A DNA stretch of 64,000 nt from Escherichia coli (lineage in GTDB: Bacteria > Pseudomonadota > Gammaproteobacteria > Enterobacterales > Enterobacteriaceae), in NCBI RefSeq assembly GCF_024298765.1, contig NZ_CP101211.1; one strand, given 5' to 3'. Positions 6,895 to 46,470 of this stretch are shown here, one piece after another (within the stretch, counting starts at the first letter, position 1; the number at the start of each line of letters is the position of its first letter). The translations under genes and the position numbers were made by a program. The notes beneath the pieces are model-generated. The model had not been told where the DNA came from. It saw nothing but the letters and a program-made list of their open reading frames with translations, and did not search any database.

Positions 6895-7576
6895 ATGAAA
6901 ACCGCCACTGCGCCGTTACCACCGCTGCGTTCGGTCAAGGTTCTGGACCAGTTGCGTGAGCGCATACGCTACTTGCATTACAGTTTACGAACCGAACAGG
7001 CTTATGTCCACTGGGTTCGTGCCTTCATCCGTTTCCACGGTGTGCGTCACCCGGCAACCTTGGGCAGCAGCGAAGTCGAGGCATTTCTGTCCTGGCTGGC
7101 GAACGAGCGCAAGGTTTCGGTCTCCACGCATCGTCAGGCATTGGCGGCCTTGCTGTTCTTCTACGGCAAGGTGCTGTGCACGGATCTGCCCTGGCTTCAG
7201 GAGATCGGAAGACCTCGGCCGTCGCGGCGCTTGCCGGTGGTGCTGACCCCGGATGAAGTGGTTCGCATCCTCGGTTTTCTGGAAGGCGAGCATCGTTTGT
7301 TCGCCCAGCTTCTGTATGGAACGGGCATGCGGATCAGTGAGGGTTTGCAACTGCGGGTCAAGGATCTGGATTTCGATCACGGCACGATCATCGTGCGGGA
7401 GGGCAAGGGCTCCAAGGATCGGGCCTTGATGTTACCCGAGAGCTTGGCACCCAGCCTGCGCGAGCAGCTGTCGCGTGCACGGGCATGGTGGCTGAAGGAC
7501 CAGGCCGAGGGCCGCAGCGGCGTTGCGCTTCCCGACGCCCTTGAGCGGAAGTATCCGCGCGCCGGGCATTCCTGGC
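6895..7576 (+). pseudogene. intI1: Class 1 integrase gene truncated at its 3' end by IS26 (about 227 codons kept)
   Basis: Translation [44 protein letters not shown]... matches IntI1; reading frame runs into the IS26 repeat at 7577. Confidence 0.9.
6982..7010 (-). promoter_or_regulatory. Integron cassette promoter Pc, hybrid variant (-35 TGGACA, -10 TAAACT, 17-bp spacer)
   Basis: On the cassette strand: TGGACAtaagcctgttcggttcgTAAACT inside intI1. Confidence 0.7.
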
Positions 7577-24781: not shown

Positions 24782-24807
24782 CGTACTCATCAAAAGTGAA
24801 AGTAACT

Positions 24808-37344: not shown

Positions 37345-37937
37345 AGACCGTTCTCCTTTTCTGATGCGGTTATGATGGCATACAAAAAAAAGGTTAGAGC
37401 TCGTATAGCATGGTCGTTTTTATGTTGAAAAGGACGGAAAAGGAGTGCTGACTAAGAAGATAGTCTCGGTGATGGAAAGATCATCCATCTTGCACATTGT
37501 GAAAAATCCGGTGTAACAAAAACATGGTTTTATCGAATATCTAAAAGCAAATATTGCTTTGAAAACAGGTGTATTAAGAGCTGAAAAAAATCATCACCAG
37601 TAACGCTGTTTCTATATTTCAAAGAAGGAATAGCTAAGGATCAAAGAAGCGAACTTAGGCAAGAATATAAAATATATTAATTGAAAGCGATTAAGAAGTC
37701 GTCATGCATAGAAGGTTTTAGAGAACCTAAGTAGTTTTACGTTTTCAACAGAAAAAAAGGTGAACATTTTTTGGAACGAAGAAAGACTGTATAAAGAAAA
37801 ATCAAATTATATCTTTACTTGTCAAGAGTTAATATTTAAGTTGTAACTAATATTTGATTGTAAAGCAAACAACAGAATTTGACTTAAGTCAATATTTAGA
37901 TTCAGACAAGGCAAGTTTCGCGATATCTTTTTTAAAT

Positions 37938-38450
37938 TTAATCTAATTCTTCTTGAGAATACCTCTCTATGGCTGAAGCAGTTGAAGATAATCTGCAACG
38001 TGGACAATAAGCATCATTTGTCACTGGCACAATGTATGGGCGTTTACATTTTTCGCAGGCACCTAGTTCTTCAATTTCTTTCATAGAAGTAAGGATTTCT
38101 ATTATTTTATTAACTTCCGGTGCGCATACAAAGTATCCCAGATTATGAAGGACACTCATTATTCGGTTGAAGTCAATTTGCCGAAAACTCGCTTCCGGAT
38201 TTATTGGATCAAAACCAAAATAGTTAACTGCGACATCAATAACAGCAGAAAAAGCTCGGCGGTTATCTGTGCGTTTGCTCCAGCCCCGGATACCTTTTTT
38301 GAGTTTTGTTTTTGCACCAGGCTCAAAATCGATATTTTCAGCAACATGATTACCGTACAAAATTCGTATTGTATTTTTATTTGCCCCAAGCGACATAGTC
38401 CTTGCTGCTCGCAATAGAGCATTAGCTTTTGTTTGATCGACCTTTGCCAT
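37938..38450 (-). CDS. FlhC-like regulator with a C-terminal C-x2-C-x15-C-x2-C zinc ribbon
   Basis: CEKCKRPYIVPVTNDAYCPRC has the Cys spacing of FlhC-family activators. Confidence 0.5.
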   Translation of the reverse strand: MAKVDQTKANALLRAARTMSLGANKNTIRILYGNHVAENIDFEPGAKTKLKKGIRGWSKRTDNRRAFSAVIDVAVNYFGFDPINPEASFRQIDFNRIMSVLHNLGYFVCAPEVNKIIEILTSMKEIEELGACEKCKRPYIVPVTNDAYCPRCRLSSTASAIERYSQEELD

Positions 38451-38451
38451 A

Positions 38452-39252
38452 TTAATAATCCTTTAACATAACTTTATTTGTTAAAGTGTTGAACACATCC
38501 TGACGGTGACTGGTGAACATAGTGTCATAACGTAATAGTTCCATCAAATCATCACTAACTTTTCCTAACCGGATGTCAGCAGACAATTCATAAGCCCAGG
38601 CAAAAACTTTCGTTTTAAGTGAAACACTCTCTTCAATATGCCCTTGTGAGAAAGCAATTGTACGTGGGAAAAGAACGACATCGTTAATTGTTTTTAACGA
38701 TGAATAACCAATGTCTTTAATAGCATCAGCTGTAGTTGGTTTTAAACCAAAGAAAACACTTACAAACTCTGGTGCGAGCATTGAGATAAAGAACACCTGC
38801 ATAAAGTAGTCATTCTGTATATCAACACATTTAGAACGCAACTCATGAATCTTCTTGGGATTATAGATATCCACTGTACCATTCAGAAAAGTCACTTTTT
38901 CACCGGCATCGTAAATACCATAGTCAATATCATTTGTATCATATTCACGAATTACATTGGAATCACCGTCCAAGACCGCAGAAAAAAACCTCTCCCATGT
39001 AATTTCCTTTCCGAGTGTACGCGGAACCAAAAAACTACCTGGACGTGTTTCCACTTCAAAAGCTAAATCAGCGGCTGTACTAAATCCTTTCCCAAATAGG
39101 CGACGCTGGAGAAGAGGAGTCCCAGTTTGATATGCAGAAGATCCATGCACAGGCAATAACATTAAAAATGCACGGTAACTACGAATAAGCGAAATCTCAG
39201 TGCGGAAAAGTTTACCGAGTAAGCTACGAGTTAAATTATCAGATTCTGACAT
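38452..39252 (-). CDS. Hypothetical protein co-transcribed with the FlhC-like gene
   Basis: 266-aa ORF ending 1 bp before the FlhC-like start. Confidence 0.45.
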   Translation of the reverse strand: MSESDNLTRSLLGKLFRTEISLIRSYRAFLMLLPVHGSSAYQTGTPLLQRRLFGKGFSTAADLAFEVETRPGSFLVPRTLGKEITWERFFSAVLDGDSNVIREYDTNDIDYGIYDAGEKVTFLNGTVDIYNPKKIHELRSKCVDIQNDYFMQVFFISMLAPEFVSVFFGLKPTTADAIKDIGYSSLKTINDVVLFPRTIAFSQGHIEESVSLKTKVFAWAYELSADIRLGKVSDDLMELLRYDTMFTSHRQDVFNTLTNKVMLKDY

Positions 39253-39329
39253 GTGCTGATTGTCCTTGCGCCATTACAATTGTTCAAATCTTCAACATGG
39301 ATTTTTTGTTAGGTGTTCGGTAGGGTGAA

Positions 39330-39342
39330 AAGTAACTTTTAG
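39330..39342. repeat. Backbone palindrome copy AAAAGTAACTTTT
   Basis: Exact copy about 80 bp upstream of the 266-aa gene start. Confidence 0.8.
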
Positions 39343-39349
39343 TATTTTC

Positions 39350-39372
39350 TTAAGGCTTGAATAAGCCTTAAA
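39350..39372 (+). repeat. Inverted repeat TTAAGGCTT-gaata-AGCCTTAA
   Basis: Perfect 9-bp arms, 8 bp downstream of a 13-bp palindrome copy. Confidence 0.5.
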
Positions 39373-39578
39373 TCTATCCCTTCAACCACACCGCTTACTT
39401 GTAACACTTTTTAACCAAACTGACCAGAATTTTATCAAAATTTCTTCGCATGCTAACGAAATGTGAAGCGATTAAAAAAAAACCTAAATCCAGCCCCTCC
39501 CAACGTTGGATTAGAATAACGACGTCTTTCACTGACCGTCATAAACTGACATTTTTACTTTTCATCAACCTCATGCTT

Positions 39579-39744
39579 ACATAGGATCACTAAACAAAGA
39601 AAAGTGACCCTATGAATACCTCACATAGGGTCACTTATGTTTGAAAAGTGACCCTATGTAATGTCGTCATAGGGTCACTTTTTATAAAAGTGTCACTATG
39701 GACAAAGTTCCATAGGGTCATTTTTTTTGGAAAAGTGGCACTAG
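39579..39744 (+). repeat. Array of about 8 copies of CATAGGGTCACT / AGTGACCCTATG in inverted pairs (candidate oriT or operator)
   Basis: Pairs at 39603-39635 and 39647-39679 (9-bp spacers), degenerate pair at 39689-39722, extra half-sites at 39579-39590 and about 39733-39744. Confidence 0.7.
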
Positions 39745-39813
39745 ATATATGTATAACTTTAATAGAGCAATGCACATTATCAAAAGCAATAATCCACAAT
39801 GGTCATTCCCTCA

Positions 39814-39825
39814 AAAGTAACTTTA
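39814..39825. repeat. Backbone palindrome copy (12 of 13)
   Basis: AAAAGTAACTTT about 190 bp upstream of the relaxase operon. Confidence 0.7.
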
Positions 39826-40010
39826 GAGGGTAGCGATGGAAGTGAGGCTAAACTCGCTGTTACTGTTTCTGAAGGCCCCTCCCGAATGGGGGAAACAGCG
39901 AGTGCATTACATCTGTTCAATTCCCTCATCAAAGAGCATTCAAAAATCTTCTGTTCGTGAAAAAAAACGGAAATTTCCTCCGGTATAGTAATTTCACATC
40001 AGGAGGCGTC

Positions 40011-40496
40011 ATGAGTAATTCGAATCTTATAAGTTCTATAGAGCTAACACGTAAAAATTTACGTGCTCAGATTGAAGGTTTGCGTGTTGAGGCTGAAGAT
40101 CTCATTACAAAATACTGGATCAAGTGGAAGGAACGAAACCACCAAGAGATTAACCTTACCCGACATAGCAAAGTTCCAAAGAGGGAGTATCTGGGTTCTT
40201 ACGCACCAAAAGTTGAGCTAATTGGTAATGCCAGAAAAGTAACGATCACTTGGCATCAGTTCAGCCCTTATAAAACAAGAGCGCCTAGTCACATGTCAAA
40301 ACGGGTGCAACCAATGAAAAGTGGAAAATATTCTAAGAACTGTTTTGTAAACCATGCCAGCTGGGAATACGAAATGATTTCTGAAACGGAAGCATTGCTG
40401 GAGCCTTACAGAGAAATGCTTGAGCTCTATCATTCAGCATATATCGAACTTGGACGAAAAATCCGTCAATACTCAAAAACTAAGGTGGCACAATGA
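40011..40496 (+). CDS. Hypothetical protein, first gene of the relaxase operon (possible relaxosome accessory factor)
   Basis: AGGAGG ribosome-binding site before the ATG at 40011; the supplied ORF starts earlier at 39957. Confidence 0.45.
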   Translation: MSNSNLISSIELTRKNLRAQIEGLRVEAEDLITKYWIKWKERNHQEINLTRHSKVPKREYLGSYAPKVELIGNARKVTITWHQFSPYKTRAPSHMSKRVQPMKSGKYSKNCFVNHASWEYEMISETEALLEPYREMLELYHSAYIELGRKIRQYSKTKVAQ

Positions 40497-41230
40497 CCGA
40501 CGCAATTATCACGGACAATGAGCGTATTAACATTGAACCAAAAGATGTAATGGTAAAAGGTTCAAATAAAAAGCAAGGCGTAAACGCTCAAACTTCTACT
40601 CAACGTAGACCAGAGCACCAGGGTATGGCCAAAGTTATTATTAACCCCGGCACCCCAGATTTTAACCGGTTTTTAACTGCCAGAAATGGAGCAGTCATCA
40701 GAGGTTTTGATGATGTGAGTATCGCTATTTCCTCTCTCTTTAAAACGGTTGATGCAGTTAAACATCCTGACCTTGTTCAGGCTATTCAGGATTGGTTCAA
40801 CGAGCTGCATGAAGAAAACAATAAGATGAAAGAAAATCTTGTTGCTTATATTAAGTCAATTGAGTTCGACAAGAATGACTCATTCATGTCATCAACTCAG
40901 TTTGTACCTTTCAGTTTTGAACCAGTACAACTCAACTTCAATAACCACAACACCATGAGGTTTTACAAGTACATCTTCGAGATGAACCAGCTCATGAACA
41001 CAATGTATGAGTACAACTCATTGGGTTTACTGGCTGTAAGCGACTATCCGGTTATGTCTCACAACATTATAAAGAGTATTAATTTATATGTTGAGAATGT
41101 GAAAAAGACTCTGAATGTTTCTCGCCGTAAGGATGGGCCATACAGTCCAGCAGAGTTCATCACCAAAGTAATGCAATATAAAAGTGTGCAGGCATACATT
41201 GCAGCCGAACTGTCAGGCAAACGTCGATAA
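40493..41230 (+). CDS. Hypothetical protein (possible relaxosome component)
   Basis: 245-aa ORF translationally coupled to neighbours. Confidence 0.45.
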   Translation: MTDAIITDNERINIEPKDVMVKGSNKKQGVNAQTSTQRRPEHQGMAKVIINPGTPDFNRFLTARNGAVIRGFDDVSIAISSLFKTVDAVKHPDLVQAIQDWFNELHEENNKMKENLVAYIKSIEFDKNDSFMSSTQFVPFSFEPVQLNFNNHNTMRFYKYIFEMNQLMNTMYEYNSLGLLAVSDYPVMSHNIIKSINLYVENVKKTLNVSRRKDGPYSPAEFITKVMQYKSVQAYIAAELSGKRR

Positions 41231-41233
41231 GGT

Positions 41234-44200
41234 ATGATGATGAATTTCAGGGCGCTGTATTTATGTATTAAACGGATTTTGGGGATATTCTCATCTCAGG
41301 AGAATGATGCAACCTCTGTAATGATTGAGGATATATCAAGCCTCTCTCCTTTTGCGCAGATTCTAGGAGATCAGAAGTACACTGTTCCTGATCATCCAAA
41401 TCCAGAAGTCCTGAAATTCATCGAGTATCCAACTCGTCCGACGGGCATACAGACATTTAATGAACAGTCAATCCTGTCTCTGTATCGGGAAAAGCTGCAC
41501 TCAATTTCAATGATGTTAGCTATCAGCGATAGCGACATCAGGGACGATGCATATACATTTACTAATTTAGTATTAAAGCCCTTGGTTGAATATGTTCGCT
41601 GGATACATCTTTTGCCAGCTTCCGAAAATCATCATCATAATGGTATTGGTGGGTTACTTTCTCACAGCCTGGAAGTGGCCATACTCTCTTTAAAAAATGC
41701 GCATCACTCAGAACTGAGACCAATCGGATATCAAGATGAAGAAGTAGTCCGTAGAAAAGTATATCTCTATGCTGCGTTTATCTGTGGTTTAGTCCATGAT
41801 GCCGGAAAGGTTTACGATCTCGATATTGTAAGCCTGAATTTAGCTAGTCCGATCATTTGGACGCCAAGCTCACAAAGTCTTCTTGACTGGGCACGTGAAA
41901 ATGACGTGGTTGAATACGAAATCCACTGGCGAAAGCGTATTCATAATCAACATAATATCTGGTCCAGCGTTTTCCTTGAGCGAATCCTAAACCCGGTATG
42001 TCTTGCATTTTTGGATCGGGTAAATAAAGAACGTGTTTATTCAAAAATGATCACCGCCCTAAACGTTTATACTGATGGGAATGACTTTTTGTCTAAATGC
42101 GTGAGGACCGCTGATTTCTATTCTACTGGTACAGACCTTAATGTTTTACGTGACCCTATCATGGGTCTGCGTTCTAATGATGCAGCAGCAAGGGCCATTA
42201 GTACCATCAAGCACAACTTTACCAGTATCAATATCAACAATTACAATGCTAAGCCTATGCACATCATTATCGTAAATGGTGAGGTATACCTTAACGAGAA
42301 CGCATTCCTTGATTTTGTTCTCAATGATTTCGAATTACATAAATATAACTTCCCTCAGGGAGAGGCTGGTAAGATGGTATTGGTAGAATCCCTAGTTCAA
42401 CGTGGTTACGTCGAGCCCTATGATGATGAGCGTGTCGTTCACTACTTCATTCCGGGTATCTATTCGGAAAACGAAATATCAAACATCTTTAGAAATGGGA
42501 TAGGGAAACTAGAATTCTATAACCTTCTTAAGCTAAGGTGGATTGGTTTAATCTTTGATTCCTATAAAATCCCTGACTCAGTGCCGGGTCTTTTTAGCGT
42601 TAATGCCAATAAAGACTTTATTTACATTGACGAGCAAAAAACAGTTACTGAATACAGAAGACCAGTGCCCGGTCGGGACGCTATAACTAAAATTACTGAT
42701 ACTGTTGAGACGGCTGTTCTTAAGGTTAATGATTTAGGCCGCTCCACTGCCTCTATTGATGTTGATATACATTCTAAGAAAAATGAAGGCTCATCCGACG
42801 ATTTTGAGAAGAAAGCCGAAAGTGATAATGAAATTGATAATGACACGCAGATAGTTAAATCTGAGGGTGAGGAAGCAGCTGATCCTGTCATTCCTGATAT
42901 AGAAGAAAGTGAAGATGAATCGGCAAAGGACACGGAATCCCATGTCCTGGTCAACCAACTTCATGAACTCCTTTTAAGCGCTCCACTTTCCAATGACTAT
43001 ATAGTGTGTGTAGATGCTGTCCCCTACCTCAACATAGATGCCACTATGGCATTGCTGCCGGGATTAGATGAAAAAGCATTTAGTGAAGAGCCCTATTTCC
43101 AACTGACATTCAGAGAAGGCTCTCTCGATGGAATGTGGATAGTAAGGGACATTGACGATCTGCGTTTAGTCCAGCTCGGCGATAACTGCGCCGGGTTCCA
43201 GCTCACCTATCATGAGCCAAGAAGGCCAACAACTTTAAAGTCACTTTTCAATACTTCTATGTATCAGGCATTAGTGATTAATGATGAGTCTTCTGTTGAA
43301 AACTCTGCCCCACGTCCAAAGCAAACGCTTGAGCTGCCTCCCCCACGTGTAAATGCAGTCGAAGAACATTCTGGCGACGTGGAATATCATGGAACCGATA
43401 GTGCATCCGCGACTGGTCCGCTGAAAACTGAGGCTGTGGAATATGAACATTATCAACATCTTTTTGAGGAAGAAGATGAAGAGCATGAGATCATTGATTA
43501 TACCGATTTCACACAGCTTAGTGTTTCTCGGCCAGAAGTCGGTAGTTGTGCAACAAGCTCTTCGGTCCATAATGAAAAGCTTCTCCCCGAGCCGTCAGAA
43601 TTACCAGAACTTAACCGAGAACAGAACGCTGATCCCCAGGGTACGATTGAACGCTCTATGGATGTTTCTGTAGGACAAGAAAACTCAGAACCAGATACTG
43701 AGGGTAACTGCCCACCACCAGCTGAAGTTGTGTATTCCCAGACCGAAGCAGCCGCAACCAGTGTGATGGCAAGTGAAGAGCCCGCCTTACCTCCTGTACT
43801 TGAAGAATCAAATGGAGAGCATGCGCCCACAGACGCTAAGGGGCATCATCTTTCGCCAGCACTGGCCAGACTGTTCGCCCCAACAGCACCGGTAGAAAAA
43901 CAAAATCCCAAGCGCAACCGGAATAAATCATCGGACAAAGCAGAAGTACAAAAACCAGCATCACCTGTTTCTGGTCACAATCTGAACAGTAAAGTCTTTG
44001 CAACTACTGAATCAGACCAAAATGGTGAATTCTCGCTTATAAGCGAAGGTGACGTTACAGAGCTTGAATTTGTAGAAATTGCGTCAGTACTGCATCAAAT
44101 TCTGTCCAAAATGGAGGTGGCGTTTAAAAGAAAGCGCAAAAACAGATTTATGGTAAGTACTCCTAATACTCTCTATCTGACCCAATCTTGCGTGGAAAAA

Positions 44201-44386
44201 TTTGGGTCGCAGTTAGAGGCTCAAGATCTTTTCAATAAGCTTCCTCAGTACCTCGTTAATTCTGGTGCTGTGATCAATACAAAATGCCATGCATTTAACA
44301 TGCCTACTTTGCTGGCCGCATCAGACCGGGCGAAAGTGGACATTGAACGAATTATCAATAACCTGAAAGAGGCTGGGAACCTATAA
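41234..44386 (+). CDS. traI: MOBH-family conjugative relaxase TraI (HD-hydrolase domain)
   Basis: HHHNGIGGLLSHSLEVA...VHDAGKV is the HD-domain signature of MOBH relaxases; 1050 aa with an acidic C-terminal region. Confidence 0.7.
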   Translation: MMMNFRALYLCIKRILGIFSSQENDATSVMIEDISSLSPFAQILGDQKYTVPDHPNPEVLKFIEYPTRPTGIQTFNEQSILSLYREKLHSISMMLAISDSDIRDDAYTFTNLVLKPLVEYVRWIHLLPASENHHHNGIGGLLSHSLEVAILSLKNAHHSELRPIGYQDEEVVRRKVYLYAAFICGLVHDAGKVYDLDIVSLNLASPIIWTPSSQSLLDWARENDVVEYEIHWRKRIHNQHNIWSSVFLERILNPVCLAFLDRVNKERVYSKMITALNVYTDGNDFLSKCVRTADFYSTGTDLNVLRDPIMGLRSNDAAARAISTIKHNFTSININNYNAKPMHIIIVNGEVYLNENAFLDFVLNDFELHKYNFPQGEAGKMVLVESLVQRGYVEPYDDERVVHYFIPGIYSENEISNIFRNGIGKLEFYNLLKLRWIGLIFDSYKIPDSVPGLFSVNANKDFIYIDEQKTVTEYRRPVPGRDAITKITDTVETAVLKVNDLGRSTASIDVDIHSKKNEGSSDDFEKKAESDNEIDNDTQIVKSEGEEAADPVIPDIEESEDESAKDTESHVLVNQLHELLLSAPLSNDYIVCVDAVPYLNIDATMALLPGLDEKAFSEEPYFQLTFREGSLDGMWIVRDIDDLRLVQLGDNCAGFQLTYHEPRRPTTLKSLFNTSMYQALVINDESSVENSAPRPKQTLELPPPRVNAVEEHSGDVEYHGTDSASATGPLKTEAVEYEHYQHLFEEEDEEHEIIDYTDFTQLSVSRPEVGSCATSSSVHNEKLLPEPSELPELNREQNADPQGTIERSMDVSVGQENSEPDTEGNCPPPAEVVYSQTEAAATSVMASEEPALPPVLEESNGEHAPTDAKGHHLSPALARLFAPTAPVEKQNPKRNRNKSSDKAEVQKPASPVSGHNLNSKVFATTESDQNGEFSLISEGDVTELEFVEIASVLHQILSKMEVAFKRKRKNRFMVSTPNTLYLTQSCVEKFGSQLEAQDLFNKLPQYLVNSGAVINTKCHAFNMPTLLAASDRAKVDIERIINNLKEAGNL

Positions 44387-46470
44387 TGTCAGATTCGAAG
44401 AGGACTAACCTCCATGCACAAGAGAATTTTTATCGGCCTATTCTTGAGTATCGTAGTGCCTCAATACTTTTGATTTGTTCGGTTTCTATGCTTTATATGG
44501 GACTTTCTTCAGACGGACTGGACATCGCCCCAATAGTTCTGTTCACCTCAATATTGCTTTTTTTGCTGTGCCTTTATCGTTGCAAAACAGCAGCGCCATT
44601 CTTGATGGCTCATTGGCGTGTATTCAAGCGACATTTCATGTTCGTTAGTCTTGATTCACTGCGTGTAATTAACAAAAGTAACTTTTTCTCCAATGAGCGA
44701 AAGTATCGTCAACTGGTTCAGGATTATCAAAATAAAAATAAGGATATACCCGAGCGAAAGTCCTATTTTTGTGATGGGTTTGAGTGGGGCCCGGAACATG
44801 CGGATCGGGCATATCAAATAGCTAACCTCTCCAGTGATAAACGTGAGATCGAGTTGCCATTCGTCTTCAACCCAATTAAGAGACATTTTGACGCAATGGC
44901 TCGTAAGATGGGCGGCAGCAATGCAATTTTTGCTGTGGAACGTAGGGAACCCATATTTGTAACTGAAGACAATTGGTTTGGTCATACTCTGATAACCGGA
45001 AACGTGGGTACCGGGAAAACGGTGCTACAGCGTTTACTAAGCATTAGCATGCTTCATCTTGGTCATGTTGTTGTTGTCATAGATCCAAAGAACGATGCAG
45101 AGTGGCGAGAATCTCTAATGGAAGAGGCTAAGACCCTCGGTCTTCCTTTCTATAAATTTCATCCTGGCCAGCCAGCATCTTCGGTCTGTATTGATGTCTG
45201 CAACACCTATACTAATGTTTCTGACCTAACATCTCGTCTTTTGAGCTTGGTGACAGTTCCCGGTGAGGTTAACCCATTCGTTCAGTATGCCAAAGCTCTC
45301 GTTTCCAATGTGATTTCCGGGCTTTCTTACATAGAGAAAAAGCCTTCTATTTATCTGATTCACAAGAACATGAAAAGCCACATGTCTATTGTGAATCTTA
45401 CAGTCAAGGTAATGGAGTCATGTTACGCGAGATATTATGGTTACGATGTCTGGACCGAAAAAGTTAAGTACGTCGCTAACGAAACCTTGCCGGTACGTTT
45501 CAAGCGTCTCGCTGAATGGTTTACGGCTCATTTCATGAATTACGAGGGGTCCGAACAAATAGACTGGTTAGATACTGTTTCCCAGCTTATTGATTACTCA
45601 ATGTCCGACCCAGAGCATATGGCTAAAATGACCGCAGGTATTATGCCTGTTTTCGATATGCTCATTGAAAAACCTTTAAATGAGCTTTTATCTCCTAACC
45701 CGAACTCAGTATCATCAAGAGAAATTGTAACAAGCGAAGGGATGTTCAGCACTGGCGGGGTGCTATACATTTCGCTTGATGGCCTTTCAAACCCCGATAC
45801 AGCAGCTGCTATTTCTCAATTAATAATGTCAGATCTGACCTCCTGTGCCGGTAGTCGCTACAACGCTCAGGATGGTGATATGTCAGCTAATTCCAGGATA
45901 AGTATTTTTGTTGATGAGGCACACTCAGCCATTAACAACCCTATGATTAACCTTCTGGCGCAGGGTCGTGCAGCGAAAATTGCACTGTTTATTTGCACCC
46001 AAACCATCTCCGACTTTATTGCTGCGGCAAGTGTTGAAACTGCCAATCGAATTACGGGGCTCTGCAACAATTATATAAGCTTGCGAGTCAACGATACTCC
46101 TACTCAGACGCTTGTTGTAGAGAACTTTGGTAAGAGTGCGATAAGCACAAATATGGTCACTTATACGACCGGTTCAGAAACATCTTTGCCGCATAATAAC
46201 TTCTCAGGTTCAATCTCAGAAAGAAAGCAGACAACTTTAGAAGAGAGTATTCCAAAGGATCTCTTGGGTCAGGTCCCTATGTTTCACATAGTTGCCAGGC
46301 TTCAAGATGGCAGGAAGGTTGTAGGCCAAATCCCTATTGCTGTTGCTGAGAAACAAATGAAGCCAAACACAACTCTGTCGGAAATGCTTTTCAAGAAGGC
46401 CGGAAAAGTTACTTTGCGTCAAAATCTCGATATCAAAAATCTTAATAAATTTCTAAGGAAGTTGCATTGA
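44386..46470 (+). CDS. traG: Type IV coupling protein (TraG of H-type plasmids; TraD/VirD4 family)
   Basis: N-terminal transmembrane helices and Walker A GNVGTGKT; 694 aa. Confidence 0.75.
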   Translation: MSDSKRTNLHAQENFYRPILEYRSASILLICSVSMLYMGLSSDGLDIAPIVLFTSILLFLLCLYRCKTAAPFLMAHWRVFKRHFMFVSLDSLRVINKSNFFSNERKYRQLVQDYQNKNKDIPERKSYFCDGFEWGPEHADRAYQIANLSSDKREIELPFVFNPIKRHFDAMARKMGGSNAIFAVERREPIFVTEDNWFGHTLITGNVGTGKTVLQRLLSISMLHLGHVVVVIDPKNDAEWRESLMEEAKTLGLPFYKFHPGQPASSVCIDVCNTYTNVSDLTSRLLSLVTVPGEVNPFVQYAKALVSNVISGLSYIEKKPSIYLIHKNMKSHMSIVNLTVKVMESCYARYYGYDVWTEKVKYVANETLPVRFKRLAEWFTAHFMNYEGSEQIDWLDTVSQLIDYSMSDPEHMAKMTAGIMPVFDMLIEKPLNELLSPNPNSVSSREIVTSEGMFSTGGVLYISLDGLSNPDTAAAISQLIMSDLTSCAGSRYNAQDGDMSANSRISIFVDEAHSAINNPMINLLAQGRAAKIALFICTQTISDFIAAASVETANRITGLCNNYISLRVNDTPTQTLVVENFGKSAISTNMVTYTTGSETSLPHNNFSGSISERKQTTLEESIPKDLLGQVPMFHIVARLQDGRKVVGQIPIAVAEKQMKPNTTLSEMLFKKAGKVTLRQNLDIKNLNKFLRKLH
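44675..44687. repeat. Backbone palindrome copy AAAAGTAACTTTT, inside the coupling-protein gene
   Basis: Exact copy in coding sequence. Confidence 0.75.
46405..46416. repeat. Backbone palindrome copy (12 of 13)
   Basis: AAAAGTTACTTT about 50 bp before the next gene start. Confidence 0.7.

Follow-up and report, generated by a model that had tools for sequence, protein, structure and literature searches.

Between the divergent regulator and relaxase operons of an IncHI2 plasmid lies an array of short inverted repeats, and the question that it raises is whether these repeats belong to an origin of transfer (oriT) or serve another purpose at this site. The window, by which we mean the whole stretch of 64,000 nucleotides that was analyzed, is IncHI2 plasmid backbone: the 761 bases around the array are 100% identical to pSTM6-275 and to hundreds of other records, the exact matches lie in many IncHI2 plasmids from Escherichia, Salmonella, and Enterobacter, and 1,376 of 72,556 plasmid records contain related sequence. 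Plasmids of the IncHI2 and IncHI1 groups rank among the major vehicles of mcr, ESBL, carbapenemase, and metal-resistance genes, and multidrug resistance in typhoid is driven by them. If the bases by which an oriT is recognized were known, it would become possible to predict which relaxase-less plasmids and islands are mobilisable by IncHI plasmids; such knowledge would also help explain MobI-oriT specificity and would supply a defined substrate for the MOBH1 nick reaction, which is still unmapped.

Gene context and anatomy of the array

The array is held in the 758-bp spacer between trhR and mobI (traH), together with two promoter-like sites. The genes on its two sides are as follows.

37938 to 38450, minus strand: trhY-like regulator gene (170 aa), from annotation and comparison with R27; pilus genes lie beyond it
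38452 to 39252, minus strand: trhR-like regulator gene (266 aa), divergent from the array; several records annotate it as trhR
40011 to 40496, plus strand: mobI/traH, encoding a MobI-family mobilisation factor (161 aa; Pfam PF19456, E 5e-22; PGAP name MobI(A/C))
40493 to 41230, plus strand: 245-aa ORF, the second gene of the operon and the counterpart of the unnamed H-operon gene R0121 beside traH in R27
41234 to 44386, plus strand: MOBH-family relaxase TraI (1050 aa; PGAP "MobH family relaxase")
44386 to 46470, plus strand: type IV coupling protein TraD/TraG (694 aa), from annotation

The mobI/traH gene (Pfam MobI) heads the MOBH relaxase operon downstream of the array and starts 265 bp past the array end, an arrangement that is repeated in 11 other lineages. 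The element encodes both a MOBH relaxase and a coupling protein, as the MobI-associated class of oriT requires, and TraI_2 (PF07514) was detected in the orthologous relaxase loci. No family match was obtained in Pfam and NCBIfam for TrhR, TrhY, or the 245-aa protein. The original prediction was right about the gene context, with pilus and regulator genes on one side of the array and the operon of the MOBH relaxase and coupling protein on the other. At the array itself, the RefSeq and PLSDB records carry no annotation.

Inspection of the sequence and a mismatch search placed eight copies of CATAGGGTCACT or its reverse complement at 39580 to 39745, in strictly alternating orientation and with adjacent box centers 21 to 23 bp apart. 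Four copies are exact, two carry one mismatch, one carries two, and one is degenerate. The 64-kb window contains 13 matches with up to two mismatches, seven of them inside the 160 bp of the array; 3.9 ± 1.7 matches are expected in the whole window, and a count of 13 was reached in 0 of 100 shuffles. The inverted pairs with 9-bp spacers that had been predicted were recovered by a repeat search, for example with 15-nt arms that are 100% complementary. The predicted 12-bp palindromic repeats, said to occur about eight times in 170 bp, fared differently in their two parts: there are indeed eight copies, but the 12-mer itself is no palindrome, and it is the copies that are mutually inverted.

The conserved box is longer than the 12-mer, at ~15 nt (CATAGGGTCACTTTT), and the array is better read, in its most economical description, as four imperfect palindromic units of the form CAT-AGGGTCAC-TTTT..AAAA-GTGACCCT-ATG. 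The units are 35, 35, 33, and ~35 bp long and hold the eight box copies in pairs.

39580 to 39614: unit 1, CATAGGATCACT..AGTGACCCTATG, a 35-bp imperfect palindrome kept in IncHI1 and IncHI1B-type plasmids; box copies 1 (39580, plus strand, 1 mismatch) and 2 (39603, minus strand, 0 mismatches)
39624 to 39658: unit 2, CATAGGGTCACT..AGTGACCCTATG, 35 bp, with arms that match at 12 of 12 positions; box copies 3 (39624, plus strand, 0 mismatches) and 4 (39647, minus strand, 0 mismatches)
39668 to 39700: unit 3, CATAGGGTCACTTTTTATAAAAGTGTCACTATG, 33 bp; box copies 5 (39668, plus strand, 0 mismatches) and 6 (39689, minus strand, 2 mismatches)
39711 to 39745: unit 4, CATAGGGTCATT..AGTGGCACTAGA, with a degenerate right arm that merges into the junction; box copies 7 (39711, plus strand, 1 mismatch) and 8 (39734, minus strand, AGTGGCACTAGA, 4 mismatches by eye)

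The degenerate right arm of unit 4 is common to all IncHI1/2-like lineages. The unit starts are 44, 44, and 43 bp apart, and since 43 to 44 bp is roughly four helix turns, the units probably point in about the same direction around the helix. Folded as single strands, both strands of the array give very stable hairpins (z = -8.9 and -8.3 relative to shuffled sequence); in Rfam no family reached its gathering score, and the hairpin-like hits scored 15 to 31 bits against thresholds of 50 to 440 bits. Tandem Repeats Finder reported nothing at the array because unrelated spacers separate the units. With a GC content of 0.34 to 0.37 over 39400 to 39800, the region is AT-rich and noncoding and carries iterated repeats, as MobI-associated oriTs do.

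Conservation of boxes, spacers, and geometry

To compare the boxes with the DNA between them, we aligned the trhR-mobI spacer of five sequences, namely two IncHI2 plasmids, the IncHI1 plasmid pHCM1, and two IncHI1B-type plasmids. All eight boxes are retained box for box in pHCM1 and in the two IncHI1B-type lineages, while in the same alignment the 9- to 10-nt inter-unit spacers and the flanks at 39483 to 39575 and 39760 to 39950 diverge freely. Across plasmid lineages of about 75% nucleotide identity, then, it is the spacers that change and the boxes that are kept, and the commonest IncHI2 SNP in the array falls in a spacer.

The natural number of units ranges from two to four between plasmids. 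Only two are present in the IncHI2 plasmid pRHB16-C13_2 (locus L015, 310 to 385), where an 88-bp deletion lies between units 1 and 3, and three are present in a Photorhabdus tasmaniensis relative (L021, 1625 to 1750), whose MobI has 86% identity. Given these two- and three-unit plasmids, persistence does not strictly depend on four units. A seemingly additional unit in pGD27-70 (L014) was rejected as a likely assembly artefact, with an N in the sequence, and the extra BLAST places found per record are most likely alternative registers or strands of one array rather than second array copies. A fragment of IncHI1 origin was also seen in an unrelated plasmid, the IncFII/IncR plasmid pMB3093_1 (L024, 2500 to 3700), beside IS1. 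It runs from the end of unit 3 through unit 4, the junction, and mobI into a downstream ORF that is truncated, and the breakpoint of the mosaic lies inside the right arm of unit 3.

We went on to a distant set composed of five Klebsiella/Pluralibacter-type plasmids or contigs, a 226-kb metagenomic contig, and a short contig, with MobI proteins 33 to 59% identical to that of the window; a profile search of genome contigs with the MobI alignment gave three loci only. An array stands at the equivalent place in all of the distant loci and in the Photorhabdus relative. In the distant lineages the architecture is kept and other boxes are used, for example CATAGTGTTACT, CATAGAGTCACT, and CATTAGTACTTT. 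The relative with a 54% identical MobI has four units of 35, 35, 33, and ~41 bp built on the box CATAGTGTTACT, and the 59% relative, a partial contig, uses CATAGAGTCACT. In the Klebsiella clade (five loci) there are three units, each exactly 33 bp, with boxes that include CATTAGTACTTTT; their starts are 45 and 56 to 57 bp apart, a difference of about one helical turn.

Left and right arms match at 10 to 11 of 12 positions within a lineage, compared with 4 to 6 of 12 between the two clades. Since the arms are alike within a lineage and unlike between clades, both arms have changed together. A formal count of pair covariation over the six alignable arrays was not significant (2 compensatory pairs, a number reached by 138 of 500 shuffles), because there are few substitutions in the six-array set, and the argument for concerted change accordingly depends on the descriptive table of arm matching across clades.

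The array as a probable part of the IncHI transfer origin

The oriT of the IncHI1 plasmid R27, in the traH-trhR intergenic region, is the homologous locus: the same flanking genes, eight boxes, and the junction are seen in the R27-type plasmid pHCM1. Boxes and junction are identical or nearly identical between pHCM1 and the IncHI2 window, whereas the region as a whole has 77 to 82% nucleotide identity to its R27-type counterpart and the spacers differ. The transfer genes of R27 are grouped into the operons R (trhR, trhY), F, and H (traH, R0121, traI, and others), and its MobI-like gene, traH, is the immediate neighbor of oriT, an arrangement shared with SXT and Rts1. Lawley and colleagues are said to have cloned the traH-trhR intergenic region of R27 in 2002 and to have had it mobilised by R27. 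Their fragment reportedly spanned the whole spacer (~760 bp including two promoters); the work defined a fragment and is not known to have settled what the boxes do or where the nick lies. The cloning experiment put forward with the original prediction has thus in effect been done for R27, which makes the candidate less novel: the locus is the known IncHI oriT region, and the finding is mostly not new. What the present computational analysis adds is the unit-level anatomy, a core candidate based on conservation, and indications that the specificities of box and protein drift together, which may be useful detail. A full-text literature search for the box and palindrome sequences returned no relevant paper.

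The oriT of IncA/C plasmids (R55, pVCR94) shares several properties with the array. It immediately precedes a MobI-family gene, on plasmids that encode a MOBH1 relaxase, is AT-rich, carries iterated boxes in both orientations, and has a mobI-proximal core; it differs in its box (ATTCCAGATAGATAG), in its irregular spacing, and in having a direct-repeat pair in place of the TATGTATAAC junction. In IncA/C, moreover, mobI lies outside the relaxase operon, the relaxase is MOBH12 as against MOBH11 for IncHI, and the MobI proteins of the two groups are only 15 to 18% identical. The IncC oriT is located just upstream of mobI, and deletion analysis puts its core at the mobI-proximal end, although the nick could not be mapped. 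In the IncC-type origins that we compared (R55, an Edwardsiella plasmid, and a pAQU1-like plasmid), there are four to five ATTCCAGATAGATAG boxes in both orientations, the last of which abuts short direct repeats beside mobI. The trhR neighbor is absent from these origins, and a box array therefore occurs beside mobI even where trhR is missing.

In SXT/R391 ICEs, Rts1, and MGIVchHai6-type islands, oriT is likewise directly upstream of mobI and each MobI is specific to its own oriT, but the sequences of these oriT-mobI modules are unrelated to the array. In the classical oriTs, phased repeated or inverted sites near the nick (the TraM/TraY sites of F, the TrwA sites of R388, and the TraJ site of RP4) recruit the relaxase and often autoregulate the adjacent promoter. 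The accessory arrays of F, R388, and RP4 differ in that they are served by ribbon-helix-helix and other protein families and by MOBF or MOBP relaxases.

From these comparisons we conclude, with a probability of about 0.65, that the array supplies the repeated boxes of the IncHI oriT on which the relaxosome assembles, and that nicking takes place near the junction. Its location in the trhR-traH spacer, the identity of the boxes in IncHI1, the footprint of kept boxes, the specificity of the box for this locus, and the IncC parallel all support the original prediction of a candidate oriT or relaxosome site. The concerted change of the arms, the oriT selectivity that MobI confers, the single-strand hairpins, and the retention of array and mobI on a relaxase-less Klebsiella virulence plasmid count in favor of an assembly role as well.

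The candidate core lies at the mobI-proximal end of the array.

39740 to 39759: conserved junction ACTAGATATATGTATAACTT, the mobI-proximal array end and, by its conservation across lineages, the putative core and nick region

Every array terminates in a conserved junction (ACTAGATATATGTATAAC in the window), which is the least variable part across lineages. In the IncHI1/2-like group it reads ACTAGATA(T/G)AT(AT)GTA; Klebsiella-clade arrays have ACTTATGTATAAGGG instead. The minimal oriT of IncC consists of the last box and the flanking mobI-proximal repeats, a position analogous to that of the junction. For MOBH1, no nick site had been mapped as of 2017. The TraI of the gonococcal genetic island, which is the only MOBH relaxase with an in vitro nick site in the literature examined, cuts single-stranded DNA just 5' of a 32-nt inverted repeat that is needed for cleavage. 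That oriT shares with the array the MOBH relaxase family and a ~32-nt inverted repeat 3' of the nick, near in size to the 33- to 35-bp units; it differs in having a single inverted repeat, no MobI factor, a relaxase of another MOBH branch, and no sequence similarity.

As for the protein that would act on the boxes, MobI is known to self-associate, to bind the C-terminal domain of the relaxase, and to determine which oriT is used, and MOBH11 relaxases need a MobI-like factor. The AlphaFold model of TraH/MobI (pLDDT 86.6) consists of two long antiparallel helices (residues 4 to 47 and 119 to 160) with a small three-stranded sheet at the tip, a prefoldin-like coiled-coil hairpin. No helix-turn-helix, ribbon-helix-helix, or classical DNA-binding fold was seen in this model; its structural matches were generic coiled coils only, and no sequence relative with a solved structure was found. 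We infer that TraH/MobI is the best candidate for the box-binding or relaxase-recruiting protein.

We hypothesize that the four ~35-bp palindromic units serve as a platform for one or more accessory relaxosome proteins, most likely the MobI-family TraH encoded just downstream. TraH would select its cognate oriT and recruit the MOBH relaxase through the relaxase C terminus, as in related systems, and nicking of a single strand by the relaxase would then follow near the junction ACTAGATATATGTATAAC, at the array end that faces mobI. Probably it is the minus strand that is cut; unit 4 would then lie 3' of the nick as an inverted repeat, which is the layout of the gonococcal system. A minus-strand nick would let the trhR side enter the recipient first and the relaxase operon last; in F and RP4 the relaxase operon enters last. 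The requirement for the boxes in cis, the identity of the binding protein, and the nick position are what we infer in this scheme.

A published oriTfinder prediction for the IncHI2 plasmid pGS32-1 (PMC13055346) places oriT outside the array. By arithmetic it corresponds to about 39237 to 39488 of the window, that is, to the promoter block and the start of trhR, and it may simply mark the segment that gives the best BLAST match to the R27 entry of the database, not a functionally mapped site.

Alternative readings and other elements of the spacer

The same boxes could be read as a transcriptional operator only, bound by TrhR/TrhY, HtdA, or an autoregulating TraH and dispensable in cis for transfer. 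We consider this unlikely, though it is the leading alternative. The array does lie between divergent operons with promoter-like elements at 39429 to 39456 and 39984 to 39989, and trhR/trhY adjoin it in every IncHI-like lineage; the H operon is temperature-regulated and under TrhR/TrhY/HtdA control. The two elements are described below.

39393 to 39482, minus strand: conserved block with a promoter-like TTAGCA-16-TG-TAAAAT (39456 to 39429), probably the trhR/trhY operon promoter
39950 to 40010, plus strand: conserved stretch with TATAGT (39984 to 39989) and AGGAGG (40001 to 40006), kept in all five aligned sequences

The first is the most conserved noncoding block of the spacer, and an extended -10 (TGATATAAT) was found by eye at the equivalent place in the Klebsiella clade. 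In the second, TATAGT and AGGAGG are probably the promoter and ribosome site of the mobI/traH operon. The array is 230 to 400 bp from the likely traH promoter and 125 to 290 bp from the trhR promoter, long distances for a plain operator. TrhR/TrhY control several transfer operons, which they activate, yet the box (up to two mismatches) is absent from the F-operon promoter region (37345 to 37937) and from the Tra2 promoters. Elsewhere it occurs at chance level only, both in the rest of the window and in 50 kb covering the Tra2/partition/htdA region, where two matches were found (pSTM6-275 positions 7177 and 22326). Within the DNA searched, the box is thus confined to the array locus, which argues against its being the operator of a regulon that spans several operons. 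The similar box arrays beside mobI in IncC-type oriTs, with no trhR neighbor, also speak against an operator alone. Since the spacer carries promoters as well, a regulatory role, alone or additional, is possible; accessory relaxosome proteins of other plasmids are often also repressors, so that the oriT and operator roles could coexist.

The spacer holds one further symmetric element between the array and mobI, a 10-bp perfect inverted repeat (39852 to 39861 and 39894 to 39903) around the GC-rich hairpin CCCCTCCCGAATGGGGG; it is not conserved in IncHI1.

A second kind of repeat is spread over the plasmid. The 11-bp palindrome AAAGTNACTTT is present in 14 copies in the window backbone, against 0.09 expected, at 24799, 26363, 27264, 29357, 36269, 38888, 39329, 39814, 43237, 44675, 46405, 51307, 56356, and 56482, and in none in the IS26-rich resistance part. 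The latter (positions 1 to 23000) is an accessory, resistance-type region with neither the box nor the palindrome, and its repeated 240-aa ORFs at 1464, 5919, 7622, 17536, and 20606 resemble IS26-type transposase copies. No copy of the palindrome with one mismatch was found in the window backbone, and nine of the 14 exact copies lie at least partly outside coding sequence (P = 5e-5). A further 50 kb of the plasmid (L016, pSTM6-275 1 to 50000) contains 16 copies, and the orthologous IncHI1 region (L023, pHCM1) contains 15, largely at the same positions, including those inside trhH, trhR, and traD. Nearly all other IncHI-like loci have two to three copies, and the IncC-type loci have zero. Two copies flank the array.

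39328 to 39340: palindrome AAAAGTAACTTTT on the trhR side of the array, at -682 from mobI, in the same position in IncHI1
39813 to 39824: palindrome AAAAGTAACTTT(T) on the mobI side of the array, at -197, in the same position in IncHI1 and with equivalents in all distant loci

The palindrome is unlikely to be a TrhR/TrhY site, with none in the F-operon promoter region; a global regulator or organiser of the plasmid may recognize it.

The inner half-box GTCACTTTT resembles half of this palindrome, and another factor might therefore bind the array. Each box holds GTCACTTTT, that is, the palindrome center and one half, and the two perfect palindromes that bracket the array have conserved positions between IncHI1 and IncHI2, as would fit a cluster of half-sites for the factor that recognizes AAAGTNACTTT, a loading or organising site of a global plasmid protein. 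The outer half-box CATAGG is nevertheless conserved and unlike the palindrome, and the Klebsiella-clade boxes have a GTAC core where the palindromes on the same plasmids keep GTNAC. Moreover, the occurrence of 14 exact palindromes with no one-mismatch backbone copy points to a sharp specificity that the boxes do not satisfy, and we regard a half-site cluster as improbable.

Phased short repeats are typical of replication iterons and of ParR-type and ParB-type centromeres, but with inverted, alternating rather than direct repeats, transfer genes as neighbors, no adjoining rep or par gene, and the rep, parA/parB, and parM loci elsewhere on the plasmid, such a function is highly improbable. That the array is nonfunctional repeated DNA, left behind by a small mobile element, for instance, or by recombination, is hardly credible either, for although unit number varies from two to four and the mosaic plasmid breaks inside unit 3, boxes are kept while spacers drift between lineages of ~75% nucleotide identity and the geometry is conserved even where the box sequence has changed.

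Returning to the array as the relaxosome-assembly part of oriT, we also considered a more far-reaching proposal, which is tentative and at present doubtful. The origin may be a modular scaffold of two to four helically phased units that co-evolve with their recognition protein, joined to the near-invariant junction ACTAGATAKATGTA, which would be the first defined nick and relaxase-recognition core of MOBH1 and is possibly shared in rudiment with IncC-type origins (AGATAGAT); the two AAAGTNACTTT copies that bracket the whole origin would mark an undescribed global DNA-binding system of IncHI plasmids. The link to IncC rests on AGATAGAT, which forms the core of the iterated IncC-type box CCAGATAGATAG and recurs in the IncHI1 junction CACTAGATAGATGTATAAC at the analogous last-box position (IncC-type loci compared: L012 170 to 310, L017 380 to 600, and L018 320 to 520). 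The match, noticed post hoc, may be a remnant of a relaxase-recognition core common to both, or it may be fortuitous.

The array also occurs on a plasmid that lacks the relaxase. The loci around the Klebsiella-clade array do not contain the deletion primers of the oriT published for pLVPK-type virulence plasmids; that oriT was therefore rejected as an equivalent, being a different locus that lends the array no support. The Klebsiella virulence plasmid pK204_rmpA2 (L007, 2580 to 3420) carries a three-unit array and an intact mobI without the relaxase operon and is typed non-mobilisable, as are 558 records with a MobI match. Relaxase-less plasmids with the array and mobI might be mobilisable by MOBH helpers of the same clade.
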